Shown one piece after another: positions 9,421-38,355 of a stretch of 64,000 bases of DNA. Position 1 is the stretch's first letter. Each line of letters opens with the position of its first letter. Origin of the DNA: Verrucomicrobiia bacterium (GTDB taxonomy: Bacteria; Verrucomicrobiota; Verrucomicrobiia; Limisphaerales; UBA11358); the NCBI GenBank assembly GCA_035945675.1, contig DASZAB010000108.1:48564-112563 (forward strand), written 5' to 3'. A program made the position numbers and the translations under genes. The notes beneath the pieces are model-generated. The model made no database searches, was not told where the DNA came from, and worked only from the letters and a program-made list of their open reading frames with translations.

Positions 9421-10656
9421 TCAGGCTTTGCGGATAATGACCGAGACGTTTGTCCCCCCGAAACCGAAGGCATTCACCATCGCCGTCGGCACTGCCTGCT
9501 CCCGCGCCGCGTTGGGCACGTAATCGAGATCGCACTCCGAATCGGGGTCGTCCTGGTTGATCGTCGGCGGCACGAAGTTGTCCTCCATGCCAAGCAGGAC
9601 GGCGATCAGCGAAAGCATTCCCGAGGCCCCCAGCGTGTGGCCAATCATCGACTTGATGGAACTGACCGGGATTTCACGAGCGTACGCTCCAAAAACCTCC
9701 TTGATCCCTTTCGTCTCGGTGCTGTCATTCAAGCGGGTGGAGGTCCCGTGAGCCTGAATATGCGAGAGCTGGTTCTTGCCCAGGCCGGCGGCCACCAGCG
9801 CCGACTCCATGCATTCAACCTGGCTCGGCAGGTACGGCGCAACAAGGTCGAACGCGTCATTTGTCTGCCAGCTCGAAAGAATCTCCGCATAGACGCGCGC
9901 GTTGCGTTTCTCGGCCAGACTGGCCCGCTCCAGAACAACGAATCCGCACCCCTCCGAAAGAACCATGCCGCTGCGATTGCCGGTGAAGGGACGCGAGGCT
10001 CGCGCCGGCTCCTCATTGAAGTCGCGGGTCAATACCGTCAGCGCATCCCAGACCCGAAAATACGCATGAAAAAGGGGGCAATCCACGCCGCCAACCAGAA
10101 TCAGGTCGGCCTGGCCCGAACGGATGTAGAGGTTGGCCAAATCCAGGGCCACCAGCGCCGACGAACAGGCTGAAACGACGGTGTTACTGACCCGCCGCAA
10201 GCCGTGACGGATCCCGATCTCGCACGCCGCCGCGTTGTACATCGCGCGAGGCACGGTGGTCGCTTTCAAGCGGTGCTTCTGGAGGGCATAGAAGCGATGG
10301 TAGGCCGCCTCGTTTGTCCCGACCATCCCGCACCCGGTTCCCAGCATAATGCCTTTACGCACCGGGAGCCCCGATAGCCCGTTGAGACCGCTATCAGCGA
10401 CCGCCATTTCGGAAGCGATCAGTGAAAGGAGCGCCGCCCGGTCCAGGCGCGATTTGGCCTTACTGTCCGGCCAGAGCGGATCGATCTTTTCATCGTCGAT
10501 GAATCCGGCAATTTTTGTGTGGCAGTCCGACAAGTCGAGATGCTCGACGCGTCTCACGCCCGATTTACCCGAGCGAATGGCCGCGCGGAATTCATCCTTG
10601 CCAACCCCGTTCGGACTAAGGATTCCGATGCCCGTGATCACCGACCTCTCTGTCAT
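9421..10656 (-). CDS. fabF: beta-ketoacyl-ACP synthase II family (FabF-like)
   Basis: VITGIG, SACSS (Cys), AHGTST and GHTLGA (His-His), NAFGFGGTN; start at MTERSV. Confidence 0.9.
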   Translation of the reverse strand: MTERSVITGIGILSPNGVGKDEFRAAIRSGKSGVRRVEHLDLSDCHTKIAGFIDDEKIDPLWPDSKAKSRLDRAALLSLIASEMAVADSGLNGLSGLPVRKGIMLGTGCGMVGTNEAAYHRFYALQKHRLKATTVPRAMYNAAACEIGIRHGLRRVSNTVVSACSSALVALDLANLYIRSGQADLILVGGVDCPLFHAYFRVWDALTVLTRDFNEEPARASRPFTGNRSGMVLSEGCGFVVLERASLAEKRNARVYAEILSSWQTNDAFDLVAPYLPSQVECMESALVAAGLGKNQLSHIQAHGTSTRLNDSTETKGIKEVFGAYAREIPVSSIKSMIGHTLGASGMLSLIAVLLGMEDNFVPPTINQDDPDSECDLDYVPNAAREQAVPTAMVNAFGFGGTNVSVIIRKA

Positions 10657-10772
10657 GTTTACCAAAGTTTGAACCATCCGTAATGGGAATGCAAATATCA
10701 TGTCGTCTTTATCCGGCCCGGAATGAACTTGGAAGGATGCCATGACGTGTGATATCAGTTGCACGGCGCGCT

Positions 10773-11177
10773 ATGATCAAAGGCATCGACCACATCGGCA
10801 TCGCGGTCAAGAGCATTGATGAGGCAAAGAAATTCTGGGTGGACACGCTCGGTTTAAAGCATCTGCGCACCGAAAATGTGCCCGACCAGAAAGTGCGCGT
10901 CGCTGTCCTGGCGGCGGGCGAAGCCACTATCGAACTGCTGGAGCCAACCGCGACGAACAGCCCCGTCCAGAAGTTCCTGGACCAGCGCGGCGAAGGCCTG
11001 CATCACCTGGCGTTCGCGGCCGACACCTTGGCCGGGCATCTGCCAGCGCTCAAAGCCGCCAACCTCGGACTGATCGACGAAAAACCGCGCGTCGGCGCCG
11101 GCGGCGCCCACATCGTGTTCATCCACCCCCGGAGCGCCCATGGCGTGTTGATCGAAATGTGCGAGCACCATGACTGA
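10773..11177 (+). CDS. mce: methylmalonyl-CoA epimerase
   Basis: [34 protein letters not shown]; adjacent to the mutase. Confidence 0.93.
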
Positions 11178-12678
11178 ACCGCAGGAAAAACCCGGCCAGT
11201 TTCCTTTCACGCGCGGCATCCACCCCACCATGTATCGCGGGAGGTTGTGGACGATGCGCCAGTACGCGGGTTTTGGCACGGCGGCGGAAACGAACCAGCG
11301 TTACCGGTACCTCCTCGCGCACGGCCAGACGGGACTCTCGATGGCGTTCGATCTGCCGACGCAAATCGGCTATGACAGTGACGACCCGCTGGCGCTGGGC
11401 GAGGTCGGCCGCGTGGGGGTGGCGATTTCGTCACTCGCCGACATGGAGCGGGTCTTCAAAGACATCCCCCTGGACCAGGTGAGCACCTCGATGACGATCA
11501 ACGCGACGGCTCCCATCTTATTGGCGCTCTATCTCGTCGTCGCGAAACAACAGGGCGTGCCGTGGTCGAAGCTTACCGGCACGGTTCAGAACGACATCCT
11601 CAAGGAATACAGCGCGCGCGGCACGTATATCTTTCCACCCACACCGTCGTTGCGCCTGGTCGCTGACATCGTCGAATTCTGCGCGAAGGAAGTGCCGGGC
11701 TGGAACACGATCAGCGTTGGCGGCTACCACATGCGCGAGGCGGGTTGCACGGCGGCGCAGGAGATTGCGTTCACCCTCGCGGACGGGATCGCCTACGTGC
11801 AGACGTGCGTCGGGCGCGGGCTGGCGGTGGACAGCTTCGCACCGCGCATTGCCTTTTTCTTCAACTGCCACAGCAATTTCTTTGAGGAGGTCGCCAAGTT
11901 CCGCGCCGCGCGGCGGCTCTGGGCCCGTATCCTGCGCGAAAAATTCGGCGCGCAAAACGAACGTTCGATGGTGCTGCGATTCCACACGCAGACCGCCGGT
12001 TCGACGCTCACGGCCCAGCAGCCGGACAACAACGTCGTCCGTACGACCCTGGAGGCGCTTGCAGCTGTCCTGGGGGGCACGCAGAGCCTGCACACCAACG
12101 CAAAGGACGAGGGCAGCGTGATCCCGACCGAAGAATCGGCGCTGCTGGCCTTGCGCACCCAGCAAATCATTGCGCACGAGTCGGGCGTGACCGCCGAGCC
12201 CGACCCGCTCGGCGGCAGCTACTACCTTGAGTCGCTCACCGACCGCCTCGAGCAGCAGGCGCGCGACCAGTTGCGTGAAATCGATAATCTGGGCGGGATG
12301 CTCAAGGCCATCGAGAGCGGATACGTGCGCCAGGAAATCTATCGCGCCGCTTCCAAACACCAGCAGGCCGTGGAAGCCGGAGAGAAGATCATCGTCGGCG
12401 TCAACAAGTACGTCAGCAACCAGCCGTTGAAGACGAAGCCACAGCCGGTAGATCCACGTTTGGAACCGCGCCGCTGCCGGGAACTGGCGGCCTTGCGTAA
12501 AAAACGGAATGCCGGCGAGGTGCAACAGTGTTTGGCAACGTTGGAAAAGGCCGCCAACAGTTCGGAGAACCTGATGCCGGTCCTCATGGACTGCGTGAAG
12601 AGCCGGGTCACGCTCGGCGAGATTTGCCGGGTATTGCGGAGTGTGTTCGGCGAGCACCAGCCTTCCCACAGCGTATAA
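11170..12678 (+). CDS. methylmalonyl-CoA mutase, substrate-binding (large) subunit
   Basis: [13 protein letters not shown] (Tyr = MCM type), [32 protein letters not shown]. Confidence 0.92.
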
Positions 12679-12690
12679 TCCGGTGAAGAA

Positions 12691-13089
12691 ATGAAATCGA
12701 AGCGTCCCCTCAAAATCCTCATCGCCAAAGCGGGGCTTGACGGCCACGAGCGCGGGGCGCTCGTCGTGGCGATGGGCCTGCGCGAGGCCGGGTTGGAAGT
12801 TGTCTACACCGGCATTCGCAACACGCCCGAACAGATCGTCGCGTCGGCGATGCAAGAGAAAGTGGACGCGATCGGTTTGAGTTCGTTATCGGGCGGGCAC
12901 ATGGCGCAGTTCCGGCGCGTGATGGAAGTGCTCAAGCAGGAGAAGGTCAAGGGGGTTCTGGTCTTCGCCGGCGGCATTATTCCCGACGGGGACGTGAAGA
13001 AGCTCCAGAAACTGGGCATCAAGGCCGTCTTCGGTCCCGGCAGTTCCATCGCCAGCATCCTCACGTTCCTGAGGAAGCGCCTGAAGTAA
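12691..13089 (+). CDS. methylmalonyl-CoA mutase, cobalamin-binding (small) subunit
   Basis: GLDGHERG (DxHxxG), GLSSL, GGIIP. Confidence 0.92.
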   Translation: MKSKRPLKILIAKAGLDGHERGALVVAMGLREAGLEVVYTGIRNTPEQIVASAMQEKVDAIGLSSLSGGHMAQFRRVMEVLKQEKVKGVLVFAGGIIPDGDVKKLQKLGIKAVFGPGSSIASILTFLRKRLK

Positions 13090-13190
13090 GGCGCGAGGAG
13101 AGCGGGCCGGCGATGAATTCCCCGGAAGCGGCCGATGGGGGTGGAAGCGGCCGGACCCCAATCTCATGAATTAAATCTTTCATGGGTAAA

Positions 13191-13228
13191 ACACCTGATA
13201 GCGTCCATCCGGATTGCATGCGTATGTT
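13191..13228 (+). promoter_or_regulatory. promoter of the FAAL-PKS operon: ACACCTGATAGC box plus -10 TATGTT
   Basis: Same box and 23-nt spacing as the site at 38584-38624. Confidence 0.6.
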
Positions 13229-13363
13229 TTTCCAAATTGGGTGAATTCAATTTGATCAACAACAACTGCCGCAAACCGCAACGACGTTGTTCGGCGCGGA
13301 CCAAAGGGACAACGAAGAAAGGGATTTTATTTTTTACAGCATGGACAGTTATTTTTTCCTGAG

Positions 13364-15181
13364 GTGGTACGAATGAAGGCAGACCACACTGACCCAACCG
13401 CGGAGTTTTCCACGCTCGTCGAAATCCTTCGCTGGCGAGCGCTTCAGCAGCCTGGACAGCGGACCTATACCTCCTACACCTGTTTGGTGGATGGAGAAGT
13501 GGAAGGGGGTCAGCTGGGCGGTCCGGAGTTGGATAGCCAGGCCCGGAGTATTGGAGCGCTGCTCCAAAGCCACGTGGCGAGTGGGGAGCGTGCGCTGTTG
13601 CTCTATCCAACCGGCCTCGAGTTCATTGCCGCGTTTTTTGGTTGTTTATATGCCGGGGTGATCGCCGTCCCTCTGCCTCCGCCCAATCTGGCTCAGCCCC
13701 GGCGGAGCCTCCCCAAGCTGCGGGCCATCGTCAGCGATGCGCAGCCTGCGGTGGTGCTTACCACGTCAGCGATTCTCTCCGGCACTGCGGGTCTGTTCAC
13801 GCAAGCTCCCGAGTTGCAGAAGATGCGCTGGGTGGCCACCGACAAGGTTGCCGGCAGCCTGGCGCAGGAATGGCGGGACCCGGCCGTGACCCGCAACACT
13901 CTGGCGTTACTCCAATACACTTCCGGCTCCACCGCGGAACCGAAGGGGGTCATGATCAGTCACGGAAACCTCCTTCATAATTCGGCCTATATTCACCGCC
14001 TCTTCGCGCTCGTCCCGGACAGTGTCACCGTCACCTGGTTGCCGGCCTTTCACGACATGGGACTTACCAATGGGATTATCCAGCCGGTGTACAAGGGCGG
14101 TCCGTGTTACCTGATGCCGCCGGCGGCCTTTCTCATGCGGCCGGTGCGTTGGCTCCAGGCCATTTCGCGCTACAAAGCCACGATTAGCGGCGGTCCAAAT
14201 TTCGCCTATGAATTGTGCGCCCGCAGAATCACCCCTGAACAACGTGAAACGCTCGACCTCAGCAGTTGGGATGTGGCTTACAACGGCGCCGAGCCGGTTC
14301 GCGCCGACACCATGAAACAATTTGCGGCCAGCTTTGCCTCGTGTGGTTTCCGCCCCGGCGCCTTCCATCCCTGTTATGGGCTCGCCGAAGCCACGCTGCT
14401 GGTTTCCGGCGGTTCTTTAAGGGACGAGATGTTCCGCACGATTCAAGTGGCAGAGTTTGAACAGAACCGCGTCGTGGAGGCCTCCGCCCAGCAACAGAAT
14501 GTGCGGACCCTGGCCGGCAGCGGCCACGCCCTGCATGAGACCAGGATTGTCATCGTCCACCCGGAATCACTGACGGTTTGTGCACCGAATGAAGTGGGCG
14601 AAATCTGGGTGTCCGGCCCGAGCGTGACTCAGGGGTATTGGAACCGGCCCGAAGAAACTGAACGCGCTTGTCGGGCCTGCCTGAAAGATACCGGGGAAGG
14701 GCCGTTTCTCCGCACCGGGGATTTGGGATTTATGAAAGATGGCGAGCTGTTTGTCACCGGTCGCCTGAAGGACCTGATCATCATCAGTGGTCGCAAGTTT
14801 TACCCCCAGGATATCGAAATGACGGTGGAACAGAGTCACCCGGCCCTGCGGCCGGCTTGCTGCGCCGCATTTTCCGTCGATGGCACCGGCGAAGAACAAC
14901 TGGTCATCGCGGCCGAAGTCGAGCCCCGGTACCAACCGGCGGTTCGCCACCCGCCGGATGGGGAAGCGCGCGCTCATCCCAACGGGCGTTCGCCGCTGGA
15001 TGTCGAGGCCGTGGTCCGTGCCATCCGGAGGGCGGTGGCCGAAGAGCATGATGTGCGAGTCCATAAAGTGGTGCTGCTCCGGGCCGGGCGCATTCCCAAG
15101 ACCACCAGCGGCAAGGTGCAGCACCATGCCTGCCAGGCCGGTTTCCTGAAGGGGACGCTGGAAAGACCCGGTGAGGAGTGA
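13364..15181 (+). CDS. fatty acyl-AMP ligase (FAAL)
   Basis: LQYTSGST, WLPxFHDMGL, CYGLAEATL, LRTGDLGF, GRLKDLII, PKTTSGK; directly upstream of an ACP-initiated PKS. The start may be ATG 13373. Confidence 0.92.
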   Translation: MVRMKADHTDPTAEFSTLVEILRWRALQQPGQRTYTSYTCLVDGEVEGGQLGGPELDSQARSIGALLQSHVASGERALLLYPTGLEFIAAFFGCLYAGVIAVPLPPPNLAQPRRSLPKLRAIVSDAQPAVVLTTSAILSGTAGLFTQAPELQKMRWVATDKVAGSLAQEWRDPAVTRNTLALLQYTSGSTAEPKGVMISHGNLLHNSAYIHRLFALVPDSVTVTWLPAFHDMGLTNGIIQPVYKGGPCYLMPPAAFLMRPVRWLQAISRYKATISGGPNFAYELCARRITPEQRETLDLSSWDVAYNGAEPVRADTMKQFAASFASCGFRPGAFHPCYGLAEATLLVSGGSLRDEMFRTIQVAEFEQNRVVEASAQQQNVRTLAGSGHALHETRIVIVHPESLTVCAPNEVGEIWVSGPSVTQGYWNRPEETERACRACLKDTGEGPFLRTGDLGFMKDGELFVTGRLKDLIIISGRKFYPQDIEMTVEQSHPALRPACCAAFSVDGTGEEQLVIAAEVEPRYQPAVRHPPDGEARAHPNGRSPLDVEAVVRAIRRAVAEEHDVRVHKVVLLRAGRIPKTTSGKVQHHACQAGFLKGTLERPGEE

Positions 15182-15184
15182 GCA

Positions 15185-18100
15185 ATGGCCAAGAATTCCA
15201 ACAACGCAGAAGTCATCCAGGCTTGGCTGGTTTCCAAACTTTCCGAGCGGCTGGGAATCCAGTCTCACGAGATCGATATCCGGGAACCCTTCGCCAGCTA
15301 CGGACTCGGGTCAACGGAGGCGGTCAGCCTGGCCGGTGAACTCGCCGAGTGGCTGGGACGAAAACTTTCTCCGGCGCTGGTCTATGAGTACTCCACCATC
15401 GAGTCGCTCGCCCGGCATTTGGCGGAATCACCGGACGTGCCGGAGTCAGCGACCGGGGCTGGCCAGAACCGGGAGGCGAAAAATGAACCGATCGCCATCA
15501 TCGGCATCGGCTGCCGGTTTCCCGGCGCGAACGACCCGGCCGCGTTCTGGCAGTTGCTGCGAAACGGAGTGGATGCCATCCGCGAAGTTCCCGCGGATCG
15601 CTTCGACGCGCATGCGTTTTACGATGCGGACCCGGCGACCCCGGGCAAAATGAACACTCGCTGGGGCGGCTTTCTGGAACAGGTGGATCAGTTCGATCCC
15701 GGTTTCTTCGGCATCTCCCCGCGGGAGGCATTGCGCATGGACCCCCAACAACGCCTCTTACTGGAGGTGACCTGGGAAGCATTACAGGACGCGGGACAGG
15801 TACCCGAGCGTCTGGTCGGTACCCAGACCGGCGTCTTCATCGGCATCGCGACCAACGATTATGGCCGGCTGCAATGGAATGACCTCGAACGAATTGATGC
15901 CTACTCCGGCACCGGCAATGCCTCGAGCATCGCCGCCAACCGGATCTCGTACCTGTTCGATTTCCGCGGGCCGAGTCTCGCCATCGACACAGCCTGTTCC
16001 TCGTCGCTGGTTGCCCTCCACCTGGCCTGCTGCAGCCTGCGGCACGGCGAGTCCACGCTGGCTCTGGCCGGGGGCGTAAACCTGATTCTCTCGCCGGCGA
16101 TTGCCATCAATTTCACCAAGGCCGGTGCCATGGCGCCGGATGGGCGCTGCAAAGCGTTCGATGCCCGGGCCAACGGCTACGTTCGCAGTGAAGGTGCCGG
16201 GGTCGTCGTGCTGAAGCCCCTCTCCAAAGCGTTGGCTGACGGTGATCCGATTTATGCCGTCATTCGCGGCAGCGCCGTGAACCAGGACGGACGGAGCAAT
16301 GGGCTCATGGCGCCGAATCCGCTGGCCCAGGAGGCGGTCCTGCGCGAAGCCTACCGGCAAGCCGCCGTCTCGCCCGGCAAGGTTCAATACGTCGAGGCCC
16401 ACGGCACGGGCACATTGTTGGGCGACCCGATCGAAGCAAAAGCACTGGGCACTGTGCTGGGCGTCGAACGTCCACCCGGACGGCCTTGTGCCCTGGGGTC
16501 GGTCAAGACCAACCTGGGCCACCTCGAGGCCGCCGCCGGCATCGCGGGCTTGATCAAGGTGGCGCTGGCGCTCCGGCATCGGGAGATCCCGCCGAGCCTG
16601 CACTTTGAAAAACCTAACCCGCTTATCCCTTTTGACGAGCTGCCGCTCAGGGTGCAAACGACGCTGAGTCCCTGGCCCGCGGAGTCCGGCCCGGCCCTGG
16701 CCGGAGTCAGCTCATTCGGCTTCGGCGGCACCAATGCGCATGTGGTTTTGGAAGAGGCGCCCCCGGCCAAAACAGGAACGGCGGAAGCCGAACCGAAAAC
16801 CGACACCCATCTGCTCCCGCTGTCGGCCCGCAGTCCGGAAGCCCTCCGGGCCCTCGCCCGCGCCTGGCAAAACTTCCTCGCCACCCCGGAATCCGCCGCG
16901 TCATTGCCGGATGTTTGTTACACGGCTGGCGTGCGGCTCAGTCACCACGACCATCGTCTCGCTGTGACCGGCCATTCGCCGGCGCAACTGATTGAGAGCC
17001 TGGAAGCTTTTTTGCGGGGCGAGGCCCGTCCCGGCCTGTCGTCCGGCCGCAGGCTTTCCGCGCGCCGGCGAAAACTTGTTTTTGTGTTTCCGGGACAGGG
17101 GAGCCAATGGTTTGGCATGGGGCGGCGGCTGTTGGAACAGGAAGCCGTTTTCCGGGAGGTCATCGAACGCTGTGACCGGGCGATGCGACCGTACGGAGAT
17201 TGGTCGTTGCTCGCCGAACTCACAGCCGCCGATGCCGCCCGGTCGCGGTTGAATGAAATCGATATCATCCAGCCGGCCCTCTTTGCGATTGAAATTGCTT
17301 TGGCCGCCCTGTGGCGCTCGTGGGGTATCGAACCACAAGCCGTGGTGGGCCATAGTTTGGGAGAAATCGCGGCCGCGCACGTCGCCGGTGCGCTGAGCTT
17401 GGACGATGCCGTCAGGGTCATTTGTCATCGCAGCCGATTGTTCAAGCGCACCATTGGGCAAGGGGGCATGGCAGCGGTGGAACTTTCCATCGAGGAAGCT
17501 CGACGTGTCCTGGTCGGTTTCGAAGACCGCGTGTCAATCGCGGTCAGCAACGGTCCCACCTCGACGGTGTTGTCCGGAGATCCGGCCGCGCTCGCCGGCA
17601 TTCTGGATCAGTTGCAACGGCGCGACATCTTTTGTCGCATGGTGAAGGTCGATTTCGCCTCGCACAGCCCCCAGATGGAGCCGTTGCGCGCCGATTTGCT
17701 GCGAGCTCTGGAAGGGCTGCGGCCGCGGGCGGAATCCGTGCCGATCTACTCGACGGTGACCGGCCAGGTTGCTCATGGGCTGGAATTCGATACGCTTTAT
17801 TGGGCGAGGAACATGCGGGAGCCGGTGCTCTTCTCCACGGCGGTTCAGCGCCTGGTGGAAGCCGGGCATGACATCTTCCTGGAAATCAGCCCGCACCCCA
17901 TTCTGCTCAGCGCCATGCAGCAAGGGTTTCATCACTTCGGCCAGGAAGCCGCCGTGCTTCCTTCGCTGCGGCGTGAGGAAGATAAACCCACGGTCCTGCT
18001 CGGATCGCTCGGAGGGCTTTACAGTTTGGGTTACCCGATCGACTGGAACCGGATCTATCCGACCAGCGGCAGGTGTGTTCGACTCCCGTTTTACCCGTGG

Positions 18101-23207: not shown

Positions 23208-23211
23208 CGAG

Positions 23212-24498: not shown

Positions 24499-24515
24499 CA
24501 TGATTTGGAGACGCT

Positions 24516-25229: not shown

Positions 25230-25232
25230 GCC

Positions 25233-26474: not shown

Positions 26475-26484
26475 AGGGTGGTGC

Positions 26485-27243: not shown

Positions 27244-27424
27244 GGCTCGATCTTTCCGGCTTCGGCAATTTCTTTTGGAAGTATGTAGGTAGCGCGAACG
27301 GGGTTCAAGCAGGCGGTGGCCGGATTTGAAACGCAGCGCAGACCGCCGGCGCTCAATCGCGGGCTTGCCCCTACCGGCGTGCGCTGGCATACTCGACGCG
27401 GATTGGGAATTCAGGCTAACACTC

Positions 27425-28522: not shown

Positions 28523-28539
28523 TAGGTGGGTTTCTCAAA

Positions 28540-28941
28540 ATGATTCCTGATGAATTTCAACAACTAATTGAAGAGCAGACTGACACGCAGTTACTTGGAT
28601 CGTGCCTGTATGAGGACATGGTGCCATACGTCTTTGAACCTAAGCCAGAGGCTTGGGACACTTTTCGTTATCTACTTGTTTCAAGTTTCAATGTTGGACG
28701 TGCCGATATACGAGTCGTTGGCAGTGGGCGGTTGGGTTTCAGCCTAAAGCCAGGGAAGAAGCTGATTAAACTTGCGGAGGATATCGATGAACAGCTTGAA
28801 GATCCTTCGGCAGACACAAGTGAGCCATCAAAGAAATATGCTAGGGCGATTGAGAAAGCCTCGAACGACAAGGCGCGGCGCGCAGATCGGCACGAAACCC
28901 TGTGTGGTATCATCAAGCCATTTCTAAAAGTGAAAAAATGA
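28540..28941 (+). pseudogene. AT-richer chimeric ORF: nucleotidyltransferase-like N-terminus joined to an unrelated helical C-terminus
   Basis: IRVVGSGRLGFSLKPGK is not followed by the expected DxD; the composition changes abruptly afterwards. Confidence 0.45.
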
Positions 28942-28979
28942 AGAAGGGGATCTCCAGCCAGCGGATCGAAAGGCCGTGG

Positions 28980-29957
28980 TCAGCTTTTACCAACGCGGTA
29001 ACGTCCGTGTGATTCTGTTAAGGCCATGGTGAGTTGACTTTCTTCGATGGCCTCTTGCGGATAATCGCTCAAATCGAATTCAAGCTCATCGCCCTCAAAG
29101 CCCGGATAGAGCGCGGCGAGCTTCGGGATGGTGGCCCCGGCGAGGCGAAAATAATCTTTGTCAACCTCGATCCCAACCGACCGGTAGCCGACCGCTTCGG
29201 CGGCGGCGATGGTTGAACCGGAGCCCATGAACGGGTCGAGCACCGTACCCTCGCCCAACGGCAGCAACGCTCGCACAATAATCCGCATGAAATGCTGCGG
29301 CTTCAGGCACGGGTGATCGGAAATGGCTTCTTCACGTTTCGGGGTGCGACCACTTGGCACGACTTCGGGGAACGGTTTATCAGTGGAAAGACGCCGCAAA
29401 CCGCCTGTCTTCCACTTTCGCAAGTTCTCGGCCACCGTCTTTTCGGCGAGAGGTTTCCGGAACAGCATCCACGGTTCGTAAGCGCCCTTTGGCGTGACGC
29501 AGACTTCCGGGAATTCCTTCTCGGCATTCTTGGGACGGTCGCCACCACGGAAGCCGAAGTATAACCGCATTACGGCCGGGCGAACCTCGTAACCGGCTTC
29601 AGCCATCGCTCCCTGCACGTGATGCTGAAGGATTGGGTGGCCGGCTACGCAGACATGCGCGCCGGGTACGAGAACATCGAGAAGAAGCTTTCCCCAATCA
29701 CGGAAAAACGCCCGAAGGTTCTGTTTCTCCCCGTCCGTCAGCACAGTGAACCGAGGCAGAGGATCACGTTTGTTTCCACCAATCATGGGAGGCAACCGCC
29801 ACACGCCGCCGCGTCCATTGCGCAACTTGGACAGTTCCTTCTCGGAGAATTCGATGAGCCCGTAAGGCGGGTCGGTGCAGACAGCGTGAATGCTCTGCGG
29901 CGCAGAGCCGCGCAGCCAATCGAAGCAGTCAGCAAGATGAATCTCGTACTTCCTCAT
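28980..29957 (-). CDS. site-specific DNA methyltransferase (N4-C/N6-A, beta class)
   Basis: Motif IV DPPY precedes HPCLKP and motif I LDPFMGSGST. Confidence 0.92.
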   Translation of the reverse strand: MRKYEIHLADCFDWLRGSAPQSIHAVCTDPPYGLIEFSEKELSKLRNGRGGVWRLPPMIGGNKRDPLPRFTVLTDGEKQNLRAFFRDWGKLLLDVLVPGAHVCVAGHPILQHHVQGAMAEAGYEVRPAVMRLYFGFRGGDRPKNAEKEFPEVCVTPKGAYEPWMLFRKPLAEKTVAENLRKWKTGGLRRLSTDKPFPEVVPSGRTPKREEAISDHPCLKPQHFMRIIVRALLPLGEGTVLDPFMGSGSTIAAAEAVGYRSVGIEVDKDYFRLAGATIPKLAALYPGFEGDELEFDLSDYPQEAIEESQLTMALTESHGRYRVGKS

Positions 29958-29984
29958 CGCGCGCAAGTTTCAACTATAGGCGAA

Positions 29985-30881
29985 ATGGATGCCAGGACCG
30001 TCATCGGCAATTTCGTCCGTCGTCCGCGCGAACAAAAGAATTTCACGCAGGACGGGCTGGCCGCGCGCACCGGCATCACCTACCAGTATTTATCCGGTCT
30101 GGAGAACGGACGCGAGAATTTTTCCATCGGAATCCTCGAATCACTTGGCAAGGCGCTGGATTGTCCACTCCCACAACTTGTGGCGGGTGCGTTCGCCGGG
30201 CCCTCCGTTTTGGCAAAGGTCGAAGCCAATCCCGACTATTTCCGCCCGCAAGCACCGTTGCCGCCCGGCCTCAAGATTGCACATCTGCAACGCGCGATGA
30301 ACGAAACCCAGCGGATTGTCTCGCTGATTAACGCAAATCTGTCGGCCAGCGGCGGGAAACCTTTGCCGAGATATATTCAGGGCAACAATTTTAGCGGGCT
30401 GGTCTCCAATATCCTCTGCGACGCGATTCACGAGAACTCGCCATACAAACACAACTCCCACCAAGCGTATCCTGACTTGGTCAATCCAAAGGTTTCCGCG
30501 AAAAGCAAGCCGGTCGGCTTGGAAGTCAAGTCAACCATCCAAATCGGCAAGGGCGGAGAAAGCCACAACGGTCATTCCGGCTGGCATCTCGTGGCGTGTT
30601 TCGCGATTGATCAGAAAACAGGCAACGTTCGCTTCGTTCACGTCATGCTGGCCGTGCTTAATGGTCACAACCAACCCGAGCCGGATTGGGTATACGTGGG
30701 CAGCAAGGTAAACGTTGATACCGGTAGTCGTCGAACCGAGACATACAACACGACGTTGATCGGCACGACAAAATTGCGGGACGGCTCAGTTTATCTCGAC
30801 CCAAGCATCATTAACTTCAAACGCTGGCGACAGGGCAGACGCAGGCCCGTGCCGCCGTTCTCGATCTTCGCCCAATCGTAA
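29985..30881 (+). CDS. XRE HTH (controller-like) domain fused to a putative type II restriction endonuclease
   Basis: TQDGLAARTGITYQYLSGLENG HTH, then YPDL...GLEVKST (PD-ExK); divergent from the MTase. Confidence 0.75.
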   Translation: MDARTVIGNFVRRPREQKNFTQDGLAARTGITYQYLSGLENGRENFSIGILESLGKALDCPLPQLVAGAFAGPSVLAKVEANPDYFRPQAPLPPGLKIAHLQRAMNETQRIVSLINANLSASGGKPLPRYIQGNNFSGLVSNILCDAIHENSPYKHNSHQAYPDLVNPKVSAKSKPVGLEVKSTIQIGKGGESHNGHSGWHLVACFAIDQKTGNVRFVHVMLAVLNGHNQPEPDWVYVGSKVNVDTGSRRTETYNTTLIGTTKLRDGSVYLDPSIINFKRWRQGRRRPVPPFSIFAQS

Positions 30882-30948
30882 GCGTGTGAACTGTGCCGCG
30901 CGGCGAGGATTAAGAAGTTAAGAAGCCCGACCGAGCCGGAGCCGGTAA

Positions 30949-33900
30949 CTACACGTTCCCGCTTTCTTCCGCCGCCGCGGATGGCGCCAGATTGAGGCAG
31001 GCCGTCAGTTTCTCCGCCAGGACTTCCACGTGCGGCGCGTACATCAGATTGGCGTGATTGCCGGGAACGACGTGGACCTCCACTCCGCCACCGGCCCAGT
31101 CGCTCCAGCCCTTCGTCGGGTCCGCGTCCGGAGACGAGCCCGCCGGCGTTTCACTCGCCTTGAAGAAGGTGATTCGGCCCGGGTAACGATGCAGTCCGTA
31201 GTTCTGCGTCGCGCGCAGGTCGCTCCGGAGGAGTTCGACAAAGCGGCGGGCCTGGGCAACATCCAGCTCCGCGGGTATCAAGCCGGCGCTCTTCGCCTGT
31301 TCCAGCATGAAGGCCAACTGTTCGGCTTTGGGCAGCTTCGCCACGGACTCCATCGGACCAAACGAAACACCGAAGTAACGTTCGACCAGCAGAATCGCTT
31401 CCGCATCTTCCTCCGGAAACGTCTCATCGGGAGTGGGGATCCGGCCATCGAACAGGGCGAGCAACGCCACCCGCTGACCTTGCGCGTGAAGTTGCTGCGC
31501 CATCTCGAAGGCGACCACGCCGCCCATGGACCATCCGCCCAGCAGGTACGGCCCCGTCGGCTGGACGGTCTGCAGGGCCTGAATGTACCAGGCCGCCATG
31601 TCTTCGATCCGCGTGTGAGGGTCTTGTCCGTCTTCCAGCCCCCGGGCTTGCAGCCCATAGCAGGGTTGATTGGGAGCCAGCAACTGCGCCAGATGAATGT
31701 AAGGGAAAACATGCCCGCCCGCCGGATGCACCAGGAAGAGCGGCGGTTTACTGCCACCGGGTTGAAGCGGCACCAATGAGGACTGCGGGCCGGACGTGGC
31801 CGGCTGACGGAGAAGGCCGGCGAGATGCTCGACCGTGGCTCCCTGAAAGATGGCCGTCAGCGGAAGTTTCCTGCCCAGCCGTTTCTCGATAAGGGCGAAC
31901 AGGCGCACCGCCAGCAGCGAGTGTCCTCCCAGCTCAAAAAAATTGTCTGTCAACCCGACCGGTCGAACGCCCAGGACCTCCTCCCAGATGCGCGCGAGTT
32001 GGAGTTCCAGGTCATCGCGAGGCGCAACGAACGCTTTCTCCAAGTCCGGCCGGGATCGATCCGGCGCCGGCAGTGCCCGGCGGTCCACCTTCCCGTTGGG
32101 CGTCATCGGCAACGCCTCGAGCAGCACGACCATCGCCGGCACCATGTACTCGGGCAGCTTGTCCTTGAGATAGCGACGCAACTCGTCGGCTGTGGAATCC
32201 GTAGAAGCGACCACATAGGCCACCAACCGCTTCTCGCCTGGCGCATCTTCCCGAGCCAGGACCACCGCCTCCCGCACGGCCGGGTGTTGGCCAAGCGCGG
32301 CCTCGATTTCCCCCAGTTCGATGCGAAACCCGCGGAGCTTCACCTGGTGGTCGACACGACCGAGGAACTCAATGTTCCCATCGGATCGATATCGGGCCAA
32401 ATCACCGGTCTGGTACATTCGCGCTCCGGGCGCGGCGCTGAAGGGGTCGGGAATAAATTTCTCAGCGGTCAACTCGGGCCGGTTCAAATATCCCCGGGCC
32501 AGGCCCGTTCCGCCGATATGCAGATGACCGGGAACGCCGATCGGAACGGCGTGGCCATGCGGGTCCAGAATGTAGGCCACCCGGTTGGCGAGGGGACGAC
32601 CAATGGGCACCCGCCGATCCGTCGTGGGCTCGCCCGGCCGGGGAGTAATTTCGAAGGCCGTGGCCGTGATCGTCGTCTCAGTCGGGCCGTAAGCATTGAG
32701 GAGCCGGATTGAACTCACCGGTGTTCGCTGCCAGAGCTGGAGAACCTCGGGCAACATCGTATCGCCGCCGACAATGAAGAGTCGGGGCTGAATGTTCGGG
32801 ACCAGCTCCGGGACGCCCGCCCATGCCCGGGCCAGTTCCTGCCAGTAGGCGGTGGGAAGATTGAGGACCGTGAGTCCGAATTCTGAAAGCTTTTGATGGA
32901 ATTCTGCCGGAGGCCAAAGGTTTGTCCCCATGATCACCAACCGGGCCCCGACGATCAGGGTCGGCAGGATTTCCTCCAGGGACACATCGAAACTCAACGA
33001 CGCAAACTGGAGGACGACATCGCGGGAGTCCAGTTCGTAGAGCCGTTGTGCATTCCGGCAGTGACCGGCAATCGAGCCATGTGAAACGAGCACCCCCTTG
33101 GGCTGCCCTGTTGATCCCGAAGTGTAGATGACATAAGCCAGGTTTTCGGGGAGGGTTGAACCGCCGGGGTTCTCTGCGCTTTCACGGGCGATGGTCTCCC
33201 AGCCTGAATCCAGACAGATGACTTTGGCATCCTGCTCCGGCAACCCCGCCACCAGCCGATCCTGGGTCAACAGCACCGGCGCCTGAGCATCTTTCAGAAT
33301 GAAAGCCAGGCGCTCCTTTGGATACGCCGGGTCCAGGGGCACGAACGCGCCGCCGGCCTTGAGAATGCCCAGCAATCCGATGACCATTTCCAGCGAGCGT
33401 TCCACGCAGATGGCCACCAGCACCTCGGGTCCGACTCCCAGCGCCCGCAAGTGATGCGCCAGTTGATTGGCCCGGCGGTTCAGCTGAGCGTAGGTCAACA
33501 CCGTTTCGCGCTTGTTCGCGTGGTCACGGAGCGGCTCCGCTTCGAGCACGACAGCGATGGCGTCCGGCGTTCGCTCCACCTGTGCTTCAAAGAGCTGATG
33601 AATATACAAATCCTGCGCGCTGTCGGTCCTGGCATTGTTCCACTCCACGAGCAGTTGCTGCCGCTCGGTTTCGGTCAAGAGCGGCAAGTCCGAGATACGC
33701 CGCTCCGGATCAGCGACGATGGCCTCCAACAGGGTCTGAAAATTCCCCAGCATCCGGGCAATGGTGGCCGCCTCAAACAGATCGCTGTTGTACACGAATG
33801 TTGCTGTCAGCCCTTGCTCGGTGTCCAGGATCTGCAGGGTCAAATCAAAGTGGGCCGTCTCACCGCCCCCCTCGACCGGGCTCAGGTTCAAGCCCGGCAG

Positions 33901-36900
33901 CTCGACCGTCCGCAGGGAAGCATGGTGCAGCACGAACATCACCTGGAAGAGCGGATTGCGGCTCAAATCCCGCTGCACGTGCAATTCCTCGACCAGCCGA
34001 TCAAAGGGCAGGTCCTGATGGCCGTACGCCCCCAAACAGACCTCCCGCACCCGCCGCAAGAGCTCCCGAAAACCGGGATTGCCGGAAAGGTCCGTCCGCA
34101 GAACCAGTGCGTTGACGAAGAATCCGATCAATCCTTCGGTCTCCAGCCGGTTGCGATTGGCGATCGGCGTGCCCACGATCAGGTCCTCCTGACTCGTGTA
34201 GCGATACAACAAAACCTTGAACGCCGCCAACAACGTCATGAACTGGGTCACCCCTTCGTGGCGACTCAGCGCTTTGAACCCTTCCGACAAATGTTTGGGC
34301 AACACCAACGATTGGTGCGCACCCCGGAAAGTCTGCACCGCCGGCCGGGTGTGGTCCGTGGGCAGATCGATCAGCGCGGGGGCGCCGGCGAGTTGCTTCT
34401 TCCAATACGCAATCTGGGTTTCCAGGACTTCACCGTGCAACCACTGCCGCTGCCAGTGGGCGAAATCCGCATATTGAATGGGCAGCGCCGGCAGCGGCGA
34501 GGACCCGCCGGCGCAGAAGGCGACATAGAGCCTCGCCAATTCTCGAACCAGGATTCCCGTTGACCAACCGTCGGAGACAATGTGGTGCATCGTCAGCAGC
34601 CCCACGTGCTCCTCATCGCCCAACCGTAACACGGTGCCCCGGACGAGCGGGCCCTGGGACAAATCGAAGGGGCGCCGGGCTTCGGCGGTGACCCATCGCC
34701 GGACCTCGGTCTCCCGCTCGCCCGGCGGCAGTTTCCGCAGGTCAACGACCGGCAGCTTGATTGTCAAGGTCGGGGCGATCACCTGCGTGGGCCGTCCTTC
34801 CGCCTTCCCAAAAGTAGTACGCAAGGATTCGTGGCGCTTGATGATTTCATTGAGACTCTGCTCCAGCGCCGCCAGGTTGAGTGGTCCCTTGAGGCGGACG
34901 GCGGCCGGGATATTGTAGGCCGGGAGGCCCGGTTCCAATTGATCGAAGAACCAGAGTCGCTGCTGGGCAAAGGAAAGAGCGAGGTCTCCGTTCCGTGGAA
35001 CCGGCAGGATGGGTGGTGCCAGCAGCGTCAGCCCGGCCAGGCGGGCGGCCTCAATGCTTTCCGCCAGACCCGCCACGGTCGGCACCTCGAACAGACGGCG
35101 CAGCGGAATTTCCAGTTGGAAGGTTTCGCGTATTCGGGACACGACCTGGGTGGCCAACAGCGAATGGCCGCCGAGTTCGAAGAAATTGTCGTGGATACCC
35201 ACCCGTTCAAGGTCGAGGAGCTCGGCCCAGATCTCCGCCATTAACTCTTCGGTCGGAGTGCGGGGCGCCACGAACACCTTGTCCAGTTCGGGTCGTGTTC
35301 GGTCGGGCGACGGCAGTGCCCGGCGGTCGATCTTTCCGTTGGGCATCAACGGCAACGCCTCCAGCAGCACGAAGACCGCCGGCACCATGTACTCGGGCAG
35401 TTTCGCCTTCAGAAAATGACGCAGATCGGTCGTCGTGAGGAGTGGCTCCCGCGCTGCGACGACATAGGCCACTAACCGCTTCTCGCCGGGCGTGTCTTCC
35501 CGGGCCAGGACGACGGTCTGCCGCACGGCCGGGTGTTGGCCCAGCGCGGCTTCGATTTCCCCCAGTTCAATGCGAAATCCGCGGAGCTTCACCTGATGAT
35601 CGGCCCGGCCGAGGAACTCGATGTTCCCATCGGGCCGATAACGGGCCAGGTCGCCGGTCTGGTACATTCGTGCTCCGGGAGTGGCGCTGAACGGGTCGGG
35701 AATAAATTTCCCGGCAGTCAACTCCGGCCGGTTCAAATAACCTCGGGCCACGCCGGCACCACCTATGTACAACTCACCCGGCACGCCGATCGGGACCGGA
35801 TGCAGAAACGAATTCAAGATGTAGATCTGCGTGTTGGCAATGGGACGACCAATCGTCACCTCGTCACCCGGGATGATTCTGGCCGCGGACGCGTTGGCAG
35901 TCGCCTCCGTCGGGCCGTAAATATTCCAGATCTGGAGATGCGGCAGCGCGGACCATGAGCGCGTGACCAGTTCTTGGGTCAGCGATTCGCCGCCGAAAAA
36001 CAGATACGCCAGACCTTCGCCCGGCGTCGGGGCTTGACCGGACTGAATGGCGGGGAGGATGGCTGTCCAGAACGAGGGCACGCAGTTCAGCCCGACCTTG
36101 GTCCGCGTGGCAAGTGCCGAAAGCAGCGTGGCGGGGTCCGCCACGACTTCCTCCGGGAGAATCCACACCGCGCCGCCGCGCAGGAGCGGGGGGAAGAGTT
36201 GCTTCAGGCACATGTCGAAGGTCAATTTGGTCGTCAGGGGCAGGCAGAGTTCCGGGTCACCCAGCGGACCCGCGCTGACCCAGCACAGATAGTTGACGAG
36301 GCCGCCGTGTTCGCACATGACTCCCTTGGGCTGTCCCGTCGAGCCCGAGGTGTAGATCACATAGGCCAGGCTCCGGGCGGTGACCCCACTGACCGGATTT
36401 TTTTCACTCTCCCGAGCGATGGCTTCCCACCCGGAGTCCAGGCACACGACGCGCCCTCCGTAATCGGGCAGGCTGTCCAGCCAATGCTTCCGCGTCAGCA
36501 CCACGGGCGCCTGGGCATCTTGCAGCATGAATGCCAGGCGCTCCTTGGGAGACGCCGGATCCAATGGCAGGTAAGCTCCGCCGGCTTTGAGAATGCCCAG
36601 AACCGCGACGACCATCTCCGGGCAGTGCACCAGGCCAATGGCCACGGGCACGTCCGGCCCAACGCCCAGCGTTTGCAGGTGGTGCGCCAGTTGATTGGCG
36701 CGAGCGTTGAGTTGAGCGTAGGTGAGTTGCTGTCCCTCAAACACAACGCCCACGTTGTCCGGCGTCCGCTCGACTTGTTCCTCAAATAAATGGTGGAGGC
36801 ACTTGGCTTTGGGGTAATCGGTTTGGGTATTGTTGAACTCGACTAACAATTGCCGGCGTTCCGCGCCGGTCAGAATATCCAACTCACCGATCGCGGCGGC

Positions 36901-38355
36901 TGGATCGCGGATGACGCTTTCCAGCAGCGCGTGGAAGTGTCCCGCCATCCGGGCGATGGTGGCGGCATCAAACAGGTCAGTGTTGAAACGGATGGAGGCG
37001 GAAAGCGATCCGGTCGCCTCGATGATCAACAGAACCAGATCCAGGGTCGCGGCCCGGCGTTCCAGCGGAATCGATTCCATCACCAGCCCGCCCAGATCCA
37101 TCCGGAGTCCGGTTTCGCCATGCGCGAATGCCGATCCGGCCTGTTCGATGAGCCGGTGCGGTTTGTCCAGGACGAACATGGTCTGGCAGAGCGGTGATCG
37201 GCTGAGATCCCGGGGCGGCCGGAGTCGTTGGACCAAACGAAGGGTCGGGTAATCCTGATTTTCGAGCGCCCCCAACACCGTCTGGCGCACCTGACCCAGA
37301 AATGCCCGAAACGTTGGATTTCCGGAAAGATTCGCCCGCAAGACGACTGGGTTGGCGAAGAAGCCCACCAGCCCCTCAAACTCGGCCCGGCTCCGTCCGA
37401 CCATGGGAGAAGCCACGAGGATGTCTTCCTGGCCGGTGTGGTGGTAAAGCATCAGGTCGAACGCCGCCAGCAGAACCATATACAGGGTCGCCCCCTCGGC
37501 CCTGGCGAGCGCCCTGAGCCGGCGTGCCAGTTCCTCGTTCAGAGTGAAATCATGTTGCCCGCCGCGAAACATCTGAATCGGCGGTCGCGGCCGGTCGGCC
37601 GGCAGATTGAGCACGGGCAACGGGCCGGCCAATTGTTTCTTCCAATAGTCCCAAAGCCGTTCGCCGGCCGGACTCGCCAGCATTTCGGTTTGCCAATGAA
37701 CGAAGTCCGTGTATTGCGAATCCAAGGGAGGGAGAGTCGCGGGACGACCGGCCTTTTCCGCCGGATACAACATGCCGAGTTCATTCAGGATTACCGCAAG
37801 GGACCAGAAATCGACCACGATATGATGAATGACCAGCAACAGGATGTGTTCCTGCGGCGACCGGGTGAACAGACTCACCCGCATGACCGGCCCGCGTTCC
37901 AGATCAAACCGGCGCTGAGTTTCCTCGACCAGCCGGGTCTGCAGCTCCTCCCCGCGCCAGGTTGACGCATCGATTTGCTCGAAGTGGACCGGCTGACGTT
38001 CGTGGATTTGTTGAACGGGTTTGCCGGCCTGCACCACAAATGTGGTCCGCAGGGAAGGATGGCGATCCACCAGCGCCTGAAATGCGCGCCGGAAAGCCGG
38101 GAGGTCCAGATCGGCGCGGATGCGCGCCGCAAAACTGACATTATAAATCGAGCTTTCCGGCGCGAACTGGCACAGAAACCAGATCCCCTGCTGATTATCG
38201 GAGAGAGCATGAAACGGTTGGGACCCGCCCGCCTTTCTCCGGAGGAGTTGGGCCAGAAGGGCGCGTTTTTCATCGGGTGAAAGATTGGCAATTGGCCGGG
38301 CGGTCGGCTGTGTCCGGATTTGCTGAGAGTTCGTCTGCGCCGGCATAACCTGCAT
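30949..38355 (-). CDS. two-module NRPS, C-A-T-C-A-T-TE
   Basis: HHIVVDFWS and HHIVSDGWS; two YTSGSTGQPKG/YGPTE/TGD A domains; two GGHSL T domains; TE GWSMG. Confidence 0.96.
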   Translation of the reverse strand: MQVMPAQTNSQQIRTQPTARPIANLSPDEKRALLAQLLRRKAGGSQPFHALSDNQQGIWFLCQFAPESSIYNVSFAARIRADLDLPAFRRAFQALVDRHPSLRTTFVVQAGKPVQQIHERQPVHFEQIDASTWRGEELQTRLVEETQRRFDLERGPVMRVSLFTRSPQEHILLLVIHHIVVDFWSLAVILNELGMLYPAEKAGRPATLPPLDSQYTDFVHWQTEMLASPAGERLWDYWKKQLAGPLPVLNLPADRPRPPIQMFRGGQHDFTLNEELARRLRALARAEGATLYMVLLAAFDLMLYHHTGQEDILVASPMVGRSRAEFEGLVGFFANPVVLRANLSGNPTFRAFLGQVRQTVLGALENQDYPTLRLVQRLRPPRDLSRSPLCQTMFVLDKPHRLIEQAGSAFAHGETGLRMDLGGLVMESIPLERRAATLDLVLLIIEATGSLSASIRFNTDLFDAATIARMAGHFHALLESVIRDPAAAIGELDILTGAERRQLLVEFNNTQTDYPKAKCLHHLFEEQVERTPDNVGVVFEGQQLTYAQLNARANQLAHHLQTLGVGPDVPVAIGLVHCPEMVVAVLGILKAGGAYLPLDPASPKERLAFMLQDAQAPVVLTRKHWLDSLPDYGGRVVCLDSGWEAIARESEKNPVSGVTARSLAYVIYTSGSTGQPKGVMCEHGGLVNYLCWVSAGPLGDPELCLPLTTKLTFDMCLKQLFPPLLRGGAVWILPEEVVADPATLLSALATRTKVGLNCVPSFWTAILPAIQSGQAPTPGEGLAYLFFGGESLTQELVTRSWSALPHLQIWNIYGPTEATANASAARIIPGDEVTIGRPIANTQIYILNSFLHPVPIGVPGELYIGGAGVARGYLNRPELTAGKFIPDPFSATPGARMYQTGDLARYRPDGNIEFLGRADHQVKLRGFRIELGEIEAALGQHPAVRQTVVLAREDTPGEKRLVAYVVAAREPLLTTTDLRHFLKAKLPEYMVPAVFVLLEALPLMPNGKIDRRALPSPDRTRPELDKVFVAPRTPTEELMAEIWAELLDLERVGIHDNFFELGGHSLLATQVVSRIRETFQLEIPLRRLFEVPTVAGLAESIEAARLAGLTLLAPPILPVPRNGDLALSFAQQRLWFFDQLEPGLPAYNIPAAVRLKGPLNLAALEQSLNEIIKRHESLRTTFGKAEGRPTQVIAPTLTIKLPVVDLRKLPPGERETEVRRWVTAEARRPFDLSQGPLVRGTVLRLGDEEHVGLLTMHHIVSDGWSTGILVRELARLYVAFCAGGSSPLPALPIQYADFAHWQRQWLHGEVLETQIAYWKKQLAGAPALIDLPTDHTRPAVQTFRGAHQSLVLPKHLSEGFKALSRHEGVTQFMTLLAAFKVLLYRYTSQEDLIVGTPIANRNRLETEGLIGFFVNALVLRTDLSGNPGFRELLRRVREVCLGAYGHQDLPFDRLVEELHVQRDLSRNPLFQVMFVLHHASLRTVELPGLNLSPVEGGGETAHFDLTLQILDTEQGLTATFVYNSDLFEAATIARMLGNFQTLLEAIVADPERRISDLPLLTETERQQLLVEWNNARTDSAQDLYIHQLFEAQVERTPDAIAVVLEAEPLRDHANKRETVLTYAQLNRRANQLAHHLRALGVGPEVLVAICVERSLEMVIGLLGILKAGGAFVPLDPAYPKERLAFILKDAQAPVLLTQDRLVAGLPEQDAKVICLDSGWETIARESAENPGGSTLPENLAYVIYTSGSTGQPKGVLVSHGSIAGHCRNAQRLYELDSRDVVLQFASLSFDVSLEEILPTLIVGARLVIMGTNLWPPAEFHQKLSEFGLTVLNLPTAYWQELARAWAGVPELVPNIQPRLFIVGGDTMLPEVLQLWQRTPVSSIRLLNAYGPTETTITATAFEITPRPGEPTTDRRVPIGRPLANRVAYILDPHGHAVPIGVPGHLHIGGTGLARGYLNRPELTAEKFIPDPFSAAPGARMYQTGDLARYRSDGNIEFLGRVDHQVKLRGFRIELGEIEAALGQHPAVREAVVLAREDAPGEKRLVAYVVASTDSTADELRRYLKDKLPEYMVPAMVVLLEALPMTPNGKVDRRALPAPDRSRPDLEKAFVAPRDDLELQLARIWEEVLGVRPVGLTDNFFELGGHSLLAVRLFALIEKRLGRKLPLTAIFQGATVEHLAGLLRQPATSGPQSSLVPLQPGGSKPPLFLVHPAGGHVFPYIHLAQLLAPNQPCYGLQARGLEDGQDPHTRIEDMAAWYIQALQTVQPTGPYLLGGWSMGGVVAFEMAQQLHAQGQRVALLALFDGRIPTPDETFPEEDAEAILLVERYFGVSFGPMESVAKLPKAEQLAFMLEQAKSAGLIPAELDVAQARRFVELLRSDLRATQNYGLHRYPGRITFFKASETPAGSSPDADPTKGWSDWAGGGVEVHVVPGNHANLMYAPHVEVLAEKLTACLNLAPSAAAEESGNV

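Follow-up and report, generated by a model that had tools for sequence, protein, structure and literature searches.

A probable fatty acyl-AMP ligase-primed polyketide-peptide assembly line in a Verrucomicrobiia genome and its predicted lipodipeptide product

A probable hybrid assembly line and its predicted dipeptide

What is made by the genes at positions 9421-38355 of a 64,000-nucleotide stretch of a Verrucomicrobiia genome (contig DASZAB010000108.1; the whole stretch is called the window hereafter), and do the polyketide synthase (PKS) and the nonribosomal peptide synthetase (NRPS) encoded there act as one line? An earlier sequence-only reading had listed a fatty acyl-AMP ligase (FAAL), a PKS, an NRPS with a thioesterase (TE), a phosphopantetheinyl transferase (PPTase), a type II thioesterase (TEII), precursor supply and an exporter. 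Profile searches against Pfam and NCBIfam, on which the family assignments in the window rest, recovered every one of these parts intact, and all gene frames are open across the interval. Judged from these sequences, the cluster is real, intact and under selection, with a ratio of nonsynonymous to synonymous substitution rates (dN/dS) of 0.10-0.36 in all 12 pairs tested. We propose, giving the whole an even chance, that it is an intact FAAL-PKS-NRPS assembly line making an N-(2-methylalk-2-enoyl)-Xaa-arginine lipodipeptide, which would be released as the free acid and exported to the surface by its own Lol-like system. The earlier term "self-contained" is only partly apt, the fatty acid, adenosylcobalamin and amino acids being host-supplied.

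The FAAL (13373..15181, plus strand; NCBIfam FAAL models) has 7R7E, which we take to be an olefin synthase FAAL, as its nearest solved structure, followed by 3KXW. Next to it lies the PKS (15185..21181, plus strand), in which Pfam and NCBIfam matches and ortholog alignment delimit a loading acyl carrier protein (ACP), ketosynthase (KS), acyltransferase (AT), dehydratase (DH), ketoreductase (KR), a second ACP and a conserved C-terminal docking-like helix; FAAL and loading ACP thus precede a KS with an intact catalytic triad. The NRPS (30949..38355, minus strand; Pfam, motif and pocket alignment) consists of a docking-like helix and C-A1-T-C-A2-T-TE domains. By established FAAL logic the ligase would adenylate a fatty acid and load it onto the N-terminal ACP, the single module would extend it once, and the B-type KR and the DH would reduce and dehydrate it; the chain would then pass to C1 through the paired terminal helices, receive a predicted small polar residue from A1 and arginine from A2, and be hydrolysed to the free acid by the TE.

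A scan of GTDB contigs yielded 54 loci, 38 of which (in 37 genomes) have an orthologous NRPS; the other 16 carry unrelated NRPSs (39-50%) and were dropped. Loci and genomes are cited below by L and G numbers. The PKS reading frame ends within or directly against the start of the NRPS, or of its C gene, in 17 genomes, which makes the single assembly line assumed in the sequence-only reading likely. The conserved core comprises FAAL, PKS, NRPS, TEII and PPTase, facing DUF2062, ATPase, two permeases and the LolA-like gene, and a FAAL ortholog (68-92%) was found in 32 of the 36 NRPS-bearing genomes searched. The short helix-like segments at the PKS C-terminus and the NRPS N-terminus are both conserved and, as we assume, resemble class 2 docking domains. 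Helical docking domains of that class are described in the accessible part of PMC9113145. The NRPS keeps its C-domain histidines and its TE serine. Two findings weigh against this scheme: the PKS tail has no PDB sequence match at E<=1, and C1 has a Phe at the Gly of HHxxxDG. In seven members labelled delta proteobacterium or Syntrophobacteraceae (L030, L031, L039, L042, L045, L047 and L088), the first C domain is a separate gene of 524-528 aa, and a C domain without the histidines opens the NRPS. For these a beta-hydroxy-aspartate siderophore was considered and rejected, the stretches read holding no hydroxylase, although no genome-wide search was made.

The adenylation pockets were numbered after GrsA and placed through anchor positions. 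The A2 pocket (Asp235, Val236, Glu239, Asn278, Ile299, Gly301, Ala322, Ile330 and Thr331) agrees with nine of the ten positions of the arginine consensus in the accessible part of PMC12283262, with Asn for Asp at 278. At the equivalent of position 239, a Glu of PosA binds cationic side chains (PMC10522769, as far as accessible). Glu239 is kept in 26 of the 27 readable loci, and the best single-domain solved match of A2 is ApnA A1, crystallised with arginine. A2 probably loads arginine, and the basic second residue of the earlier proposal is upheld by this Arg-like pocket.

The A1 pocket (Asp235, Met236, Lys239, Asn278, Phe299, Gly301, Ile322, Ala330 and Asn331) has no match among the published codes compared, in the parts of the sources that were accessible, and this speaks against a confident call. 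Lys239 in such a pocket points to an acidic residue. Lys239 together with Asn278 also occurs in homoserine codes, again in the accessible parts. For this small polar residue, aspartate or glutamate is slightly favoured on the pocket residues, and homoserine appears possible but improbable. Of the earlier "acidic then basic" order, the second half therefore stands, whereas an acidic first residue is uncertain, because its pocket residues are shared with homoserine codes and relatives carry other pockets; the zwitterionic character is not established, acid-Arg with a free C-terminus being net anionic. Among 33 loci with readable A1 pockets, 13 have the window type and 19 an Arg239/His278 type, which we take to be like the aminoadipate code, while L036 alone differs; residue 239 is basic in both main types. 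The differing pockets imply that the head group is exchangeable, and these natural A1 swaps offer a compact case of head-group exchange. In L036 an Asn-like pocket is presumably followed by a Ser-like one, and a second NRPS in L045 presumably has a Gly-like one. G072 has two tandem NRPS genes whose first pockets differ.

The acyl chain, its methyl branch and competing products

Ortholog counts for the PKS rest on 120 listed orthologs from a protein search (66-100% identity over the DH-KR region). The window PKS keeps the catalytic residues of KS (Cys271/His406/His446), AT (Ser724/Arg749), DH (His1034/Asp1231) and KR (Tyr1733/Asn1737), and these do not vary among the orthologs that have the domain in question: the DH His and Asp are kept in 120/120, KR Tyr and Asn in 120/120, and the B-type motif Asp1678 in 119/120. 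As the sequence-only reading had it, the module has no enoylreductase (ER). No ER family match appeared in the profile search of the window PKS, and the distance between the DH Asp and the KR Tyr is 469-509 aa in every one of the 120 listed orthologs, which, by the domain sizes we assume, leaves no room for an ER. B-type KRs are marked by an aspartate (PMC7327777, accessible part), and by established logic this type fits dehydration to an E-enoyl. One extension followed by reduction and dehydration, as first suggested, is predicted from the kept residues.

The 2-methyl branch of the earlier proposal is likely. The AT scores highest against that of DEBS EryAII (284 bits) and lower against those of CurL and PpsC (185-186 bits); Ser826, matching position 3 of the methylmalonyl motif, occurs in 113 of the 120 orthologs, and the sole other modular-PKS AT of the host genome has a malonyl motif. 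Ahead of the FAAL, all on the plus strand, lie genes for a methylmalonyl-CoA epimerase (10773..11177; TIGR03081, above cut-off), the substrate-binding subunit of methylmalonyl-CoA mutase (11170..12678; PF01642, TIGR00641) and the B12-binding mutase subunit (12691..13089; PF02310, TIGR00640). Epimerase and mutase are each single-copy in the host genome, which is 95% complete, and on sequence evidence the trio is its sole recognisable methylmalonyl source. This genome yielded only split carboxyltransferase subunits and no propionyl-CoA carboxylase subunit of full length. The mutase is therefore more likely to work from succinyl-CoA, with the epimerase giving (2S)-methylmalonyl-CoA, and labelling with 13C-propionate may fail. 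The substrate subunit has Tyr32 and Arg150 at what we take to be specificity positions, and the host encodes a PduO-type adenosyltransferase. A mutase is present in just 5 of 120 genomes of the genus. G044 and G045 hold an 81%-identical mutase inside a catabolic operon that also encodes MeaB, a CoA-transferase and a dehydrogenase, and of such an operon the window has only three genes, those needed for methylmalonyl-CoA. At L068:4240-13783 and L069:1032-8846, CoA-transferase, epimerase, mutase, MeaB, aldehyde dehydrogenase, amidase and NCS1 transporter genes form an operon possibly serving pyrimidine or aminoisobutyrate catabolism. Across the 36 carrier genomes, 29 have a mutase match, 4 full-length carboxyltransferases and 3 a C-methyltransferase beside the cluster.

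Several observations tell against the branch. The AT motif is not the canonical YASH/VASH, with Phe824 in place of the Tyr in 114 of the 120 orthologs, and the residue after the catalytic Ser (725) is Leu or Met in 116 of them, not the Gln that the accessible part of PMC7327777 gives as a methylmalonyl AT feature. The host genome yielded no MeaB, which usually serves as mutase chaperone, and of 36 other genomes just 2 have a mutase adjoining the cluster, in one case an unrelated 44% copy. The same AT residues (Leu in the window) and the lack of MeaB would suit a line whose AT is promiscuous or takes malonyl-CoA and whose product is an unbranched alk-2-enoyl dipeptide, with the mutase trio as a passenger or serving the neighbouring FabF-like KAS II (9421..10656, minus strand). 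Through inversions, moreover, the trio and a methyltransferase found in its stead follow the FabF gene and not the FAAL, and although its AT is the same, G041 (97% complete as G543) lacks mutase, carboxylase and crotonyl-CoA carboxylase/reductase (CCR). We nevertheless consider an unbranched product unlikely, as the AT groups with DEBS-type domains, position 826 is Ser and not Phe, and the mutase, rare in the genus, stands beside FabF in 14 of 35 loci.

The substitute, a 349-aa S-adenosylmethionine-dependent methyltransferase (for instance L066:11337-12386), occupies the mutase slot in 3 of the 37 genomes, G041, G042 and G043, in which no mutase, full carboxylase subunit or CCR was found above cut-off; the completeness figure is given for G041 alone. 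Among 35 metagenome loci that contain the cluster KAS II, many of them short, mutase genes occur in 14, the methyltransferase in 4 and both in none, and the swap may be a single event, the carrier genomes being kin. Like MrsA, MppJ, SgvM, AprA MT1 and SxtA, the enzyme is metal-dependent by its invariant His-Glu, His and Gln set (His239, Glu240, His294 and Gln299); unlike them it is a stand-alone protein, at only 15-19% identity. Profile matches (1e-30 to 1e-15) rank MrsA first and AprA MT1 second and include SxtA-type enzymes and MppJ. SxtA methylates malonyl-ACP (PMC10784701, accessible part). The predicted structure (predicted local distance difference test score, pLDDT, 95) is not closer to the malonyl-ACP enzymes: by template modelling (TM) score MrsA and MppJ (0.76-0.78) stand above AprA MT1 (0.68). 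This fold, nearer to alpha-keto-acid enzymes, is a point against a role in the branch, since the methyltransferase need not supply the extender. We rate methylation of malonyl somewhat below an even chance and beta-methylation of 2-ketoarginine or another keto acid as only slightly less likely, and hold a role unrelated to either unlikely. If the enzyme does replace the mutase, it would provide a B12-independent methylmalonyl supply, of use in polyketide engineering for hosts without such units. Relatives of it (P0267, P0271 and P0371-P0382) are fused to FeeM/GNAT, ICMT-like or acyltransferase domains.

A line that is not colinear is quite unlikely. The module might iterate to a mycolipenate-like multi-methyl chain, in keeping with the high, though sub-cut-off, scores of the window PKS on mycobacterial Pks2-type NCBIfam models; the KAS II, a type of gene found beside the cluster in 16 of 37 genomes and stemming from at least two unrelated lineages, might lengthen or branch the starter; or A2, whose Asn278 departs from the arginine consensus and whose code resembles a homoarginine-accepting one in the accessible part of its source, might take Lys, Orn or homoarginine. 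Against this, the separate loading ACP and the paired docking-like helices fit a single pass, and about half of the family has no neighbouring KAS II. The window KAS II (411 aa), an accessory member in this clade, has a Pfam match, falls under the NCBIfam fabF cut-off and keeps Cys164/His303/His340. Alphaproteobacterial members (L019:2500-3998; L018, L026, L037, L038, L048, L081, L082 and L093) have an ACP and a 402-aa KAS II with only 35-39% identity to it, which indicates at least two recruitments of a KAS II to this neighbourhood; genes for MipA and DUF6134 frequently come next. A main home of the KAS II in a sphingolipid operon was rejected, sphingolipid genes accompanying it in G042, G046 and only 3 of the 35 metagenome loci, against 17 of 35 for FAAL. 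Matches of 36-40% that looked like a second FabF proved to be antisense frames over the epimerase and were discarded. Just past the KAS II, L066:5148-9776, L067:6927-11702, L131, L132 and L134 carry a serine palmitoyltransferase, epimerase/reductase, PAP2 and GNAT set that, by its gene content, resembles bacterial sphingolipid synthesis.

Skipping of the DH, leaving a 3-hydroxy-2-methylacyl dipeptide that the TE might close to a lactone, is improbable: some intact-looking DHs are inactive on their native substrate and type I TEs often cyclise, but the DH pair is kept throughout the orthologs and DH dN/dS is 0.27 across phyla. Separate action of PKS and NRPS, or decay of the cluster in this genome after an insertion, is very improbable, because the 9.8-kb gap, opposite strands and intervening defence cassette are offset by the same inverted layout in at least eight other genomes, the overlapping or abutting genes elsewhere, intact frames (dN/dS about 0.2), a PKS without a release domain and an NRPS-initial C domain that needs a donor.

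Inserted cassettes, export and flanking genes

The stretch 9421-38355 is not purely biosynthetic, a 3.7-kb insert between NRPS and TEII having been overlooked. This cassette (27276..30962) encodes an HSDR_N protein, a 133-aa open reading frame (ORF), a DNA methylase and an HTH-bearing ORF, has a GC content of 0.57 against 0.62-0.63 and gave type II MTase and control-protein matches in PADLOC; it is missing from six sister loci, where the NRPS is joined to TEII at the same site. By these sequence features it is a foreign restriction-modification-like insert outside the pathway. It parts TEII (26485..27243, minus strand; 252 aa, Pfam) and the Sfp/HetI-type PPTase (25692..26474, minus strand; 260 aa, Pfam and NCBIfam) from the NRPS, and a scan that performed at or below chance detected no sigma-70-like promoter within 25000-31200; both points sit badly with our proposal. 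The interval is transcribed in three directions and is not one operon. In L011 (genome G041) a different type II restriction-modification pair occupies the same NRPS-TEII junction, and short boundary words shared by the two junction inserts suggest a candidate integration hotspot. Four genomes have four different defence cassettes within the cluster (window 27276-30962; L100:800-4200; L091:2200-19100; L039:11600-20000), and BREX (G072) and type III restriction-modification (G069) genes are placed after the stand-alone C gene.

The export genes, all on the plus strand, encode a LolA-like periplasmic protein (21178..21954; PF17131), two LolC/E-type ABC permeases (21951..23207 and 23212..24498), a LolD-type ABC ATPase (24516..25229; permeases and ATPase by Pfam and NCBIfam) and a DUF2062 membrane protein (25233..25700; Pfam). 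The LolA-like and DUF2062 genes are kept in orthologous loci, and the whole set stays with the core through inversions. LolA/LolCDE-type systems handle acylated cargo. G069 has Mla-type genes within the cluster, and four loci have MipA next to it; with the Lol-type exporter, these neighbours favour a lipid-like product for the outer membrane or surface. That the product would be a surface-active or outer-membrane amphiphile has, on this gene content, about equal chances of being right or wrong.

A 13-base word at window positions 7501, 7758, 13191 and 38587 has 5 exact copies in the genome against about 0.15 expected; with up to one mismatch, 9 of 14 copies are on the window's contig, one of them 183 bases upstream of the FAAL. 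The word is likely a shared regulatory site, a candidate named from its distribution. Longer repeats flank the cluster (7716-7838 with 38545-38668, and 8681-8835 with 39309-39463). The flanks (1-9200 and 39700-50200) encode a phosphoketolase, an ABC1 kinase, a BON protein, Hsp20, a fatty acid desaturase and two B12 radical SAM proteins. In other phyla, too, genes for BON proteins, phosphoketolase and Crp-type regulators are found close to the cluster, and the set suggests a putative stress or low-oxygen island. The stretch 5266-6281 contains class I aldolase fragments and other short ORFs, probably pseudogene remnants, and 53480-63989 has genes for pectin degradation, encoding a GH28, a pectinesterase-GDSL fusion and a large pectinesterase with Ig domains.

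Spread among phyla and known systems

The cluster is carried by uncultured bacteria of soil and peat whose labels name at least four different phyla. An ortholog of the PKS was found in none of 400 genomes of the phylum and 1 of 120 of the genus, and one of the NRPS in none of 40 relatives, all samples that do not prove absence; the 856 matches of a plasmid search were all below 60% identity. The host RpoB is 88-92% identical to those of three genomes labelled Verrucomicrobiota/Limisphaerales and 74-75% to two more, but 52-56% (main segment; 12 of 14 genomes gave a match) to those of Acidobacteriota, Alphaproteobacteria and delta-proteobacteria carriers. PKS identity across phyla is nonetheless 73-85%, which points to horizontal spread; the Acidobacteriota copy is at 85% with a synonymous divergence (dS) of 0.365, a recent phylum crossing, and the alphaproteobacterial copy at 80% with a dS of 0.56. 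Several carriers are on contigs longer than 1 Mb, making misbinning unlikely for those. In a quick C1 tree with mostly weak inner support, copies grouped mostly by phylum with short inter-phylum branches, which we read as a few probable inter-phylum transfers followed by spread inside lineages. The Acidobacteriota-labelled L025/G055 matches the window at 90-92% identity in FAAL and KS-AT, a level equal to that of copies from the same genus; a very recent transfer and misbinning are both candidate explanations. Eight RNA runs covered only 5-7% of words. Relatives' contigs in five metatranscriptome runs (X1-X5) cover all cluster genes, a weak hint of transcription from other strains with no silent control.

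The family seems common in metagenomes from soil and peat, and its small predicted product is amenable to direct lipidome search or synthesis (with a C16 starter, the calculated [M+H]+ would be 568.41 with Asp, 582.42 with Glu or 554.43 with homoserine); without a product it is one of many orphan clusters. A broader reading, which we regard as doubtful, is that the family makes an undescribed methyl-branched envelope aminolipid on an assembly line with its own LolA/LolCDE-like delivery and is spreading from one uncultured soil phylum to another; the dipeptide head groups would be exchangeable, and the methyl branch would come by either of two interchangeable routes (B12 mutase or a stand-alone, metal-dependent, methylmalonyl-making methyltransferase).

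The cluster logic is that of a FAAL-primed hybrid PKS-NRPS line, a textbook architecture, in a family without a known product. No description of it was found in the literature searched, which left out most subscription papers, and the accessible parts of three surveys of soil biosynthetic gene clusters (PMC11520301, PMC7298704 and PMC11583570) do not describe it. No isolate-named protein is among the best 120 PKS matches listed, in line with the sequence-only reading, which had recognised no characterised cluster. The nearest NRPS matches outside the family are Nostoc and Corallococcus proteins (43-53%). Cyanobacterial and myxobacterial lines of the puwainaphycin, microginin and hapalosin types likewise have a FAAL, a loading ACP and one PKS module ahead of the NRPS; the window cluster differs in its methylmalonyl-type AT, where those combine malonyl with a methyltransferase domain, and in having only two amino-acid modules, a DH without an ER and a Lol-like exporter.

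Many PKS orthologs bear the automatic Joint Genome Institute (JGI) label "myxalamid-type polyketide synthase MxaE and MxaD". Myxalamids do end in a 2-methyl-enoyl amide, but are made by many PKS modules with one amino acid and reductive release, unlike the single module, FAAL starter, two residues and TE of the window. Mycobacterial FadD21/Pks3-4 (mycolipenate), Mas and Pks2 share FAAL priming, methylmalonyl extension and a DH-derived 2-enoyl end; they differ in that they iterate, transfer their chains to sugars or diols and involve no NRPS. Barnesin A is an enoyl-capped dipeptide with Arg second (PMC13096860), and corallorazine an enoyl-capped lipodipeptide of a family that likewise extends across phyla (PMC11342130). 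In the accessible parts of these sources, the barnesin PKS acts after the NRPS with a trans FabD, and corallorazine formation involves a modifying C domain, acyl-CoA dehydrogenases and release by reduction, and its core lacks a PKS module. As far as those parts describe them, barnesin and corallorazine are the nearest lipodipeptides to the product proposed here, built by lines of different architecture.

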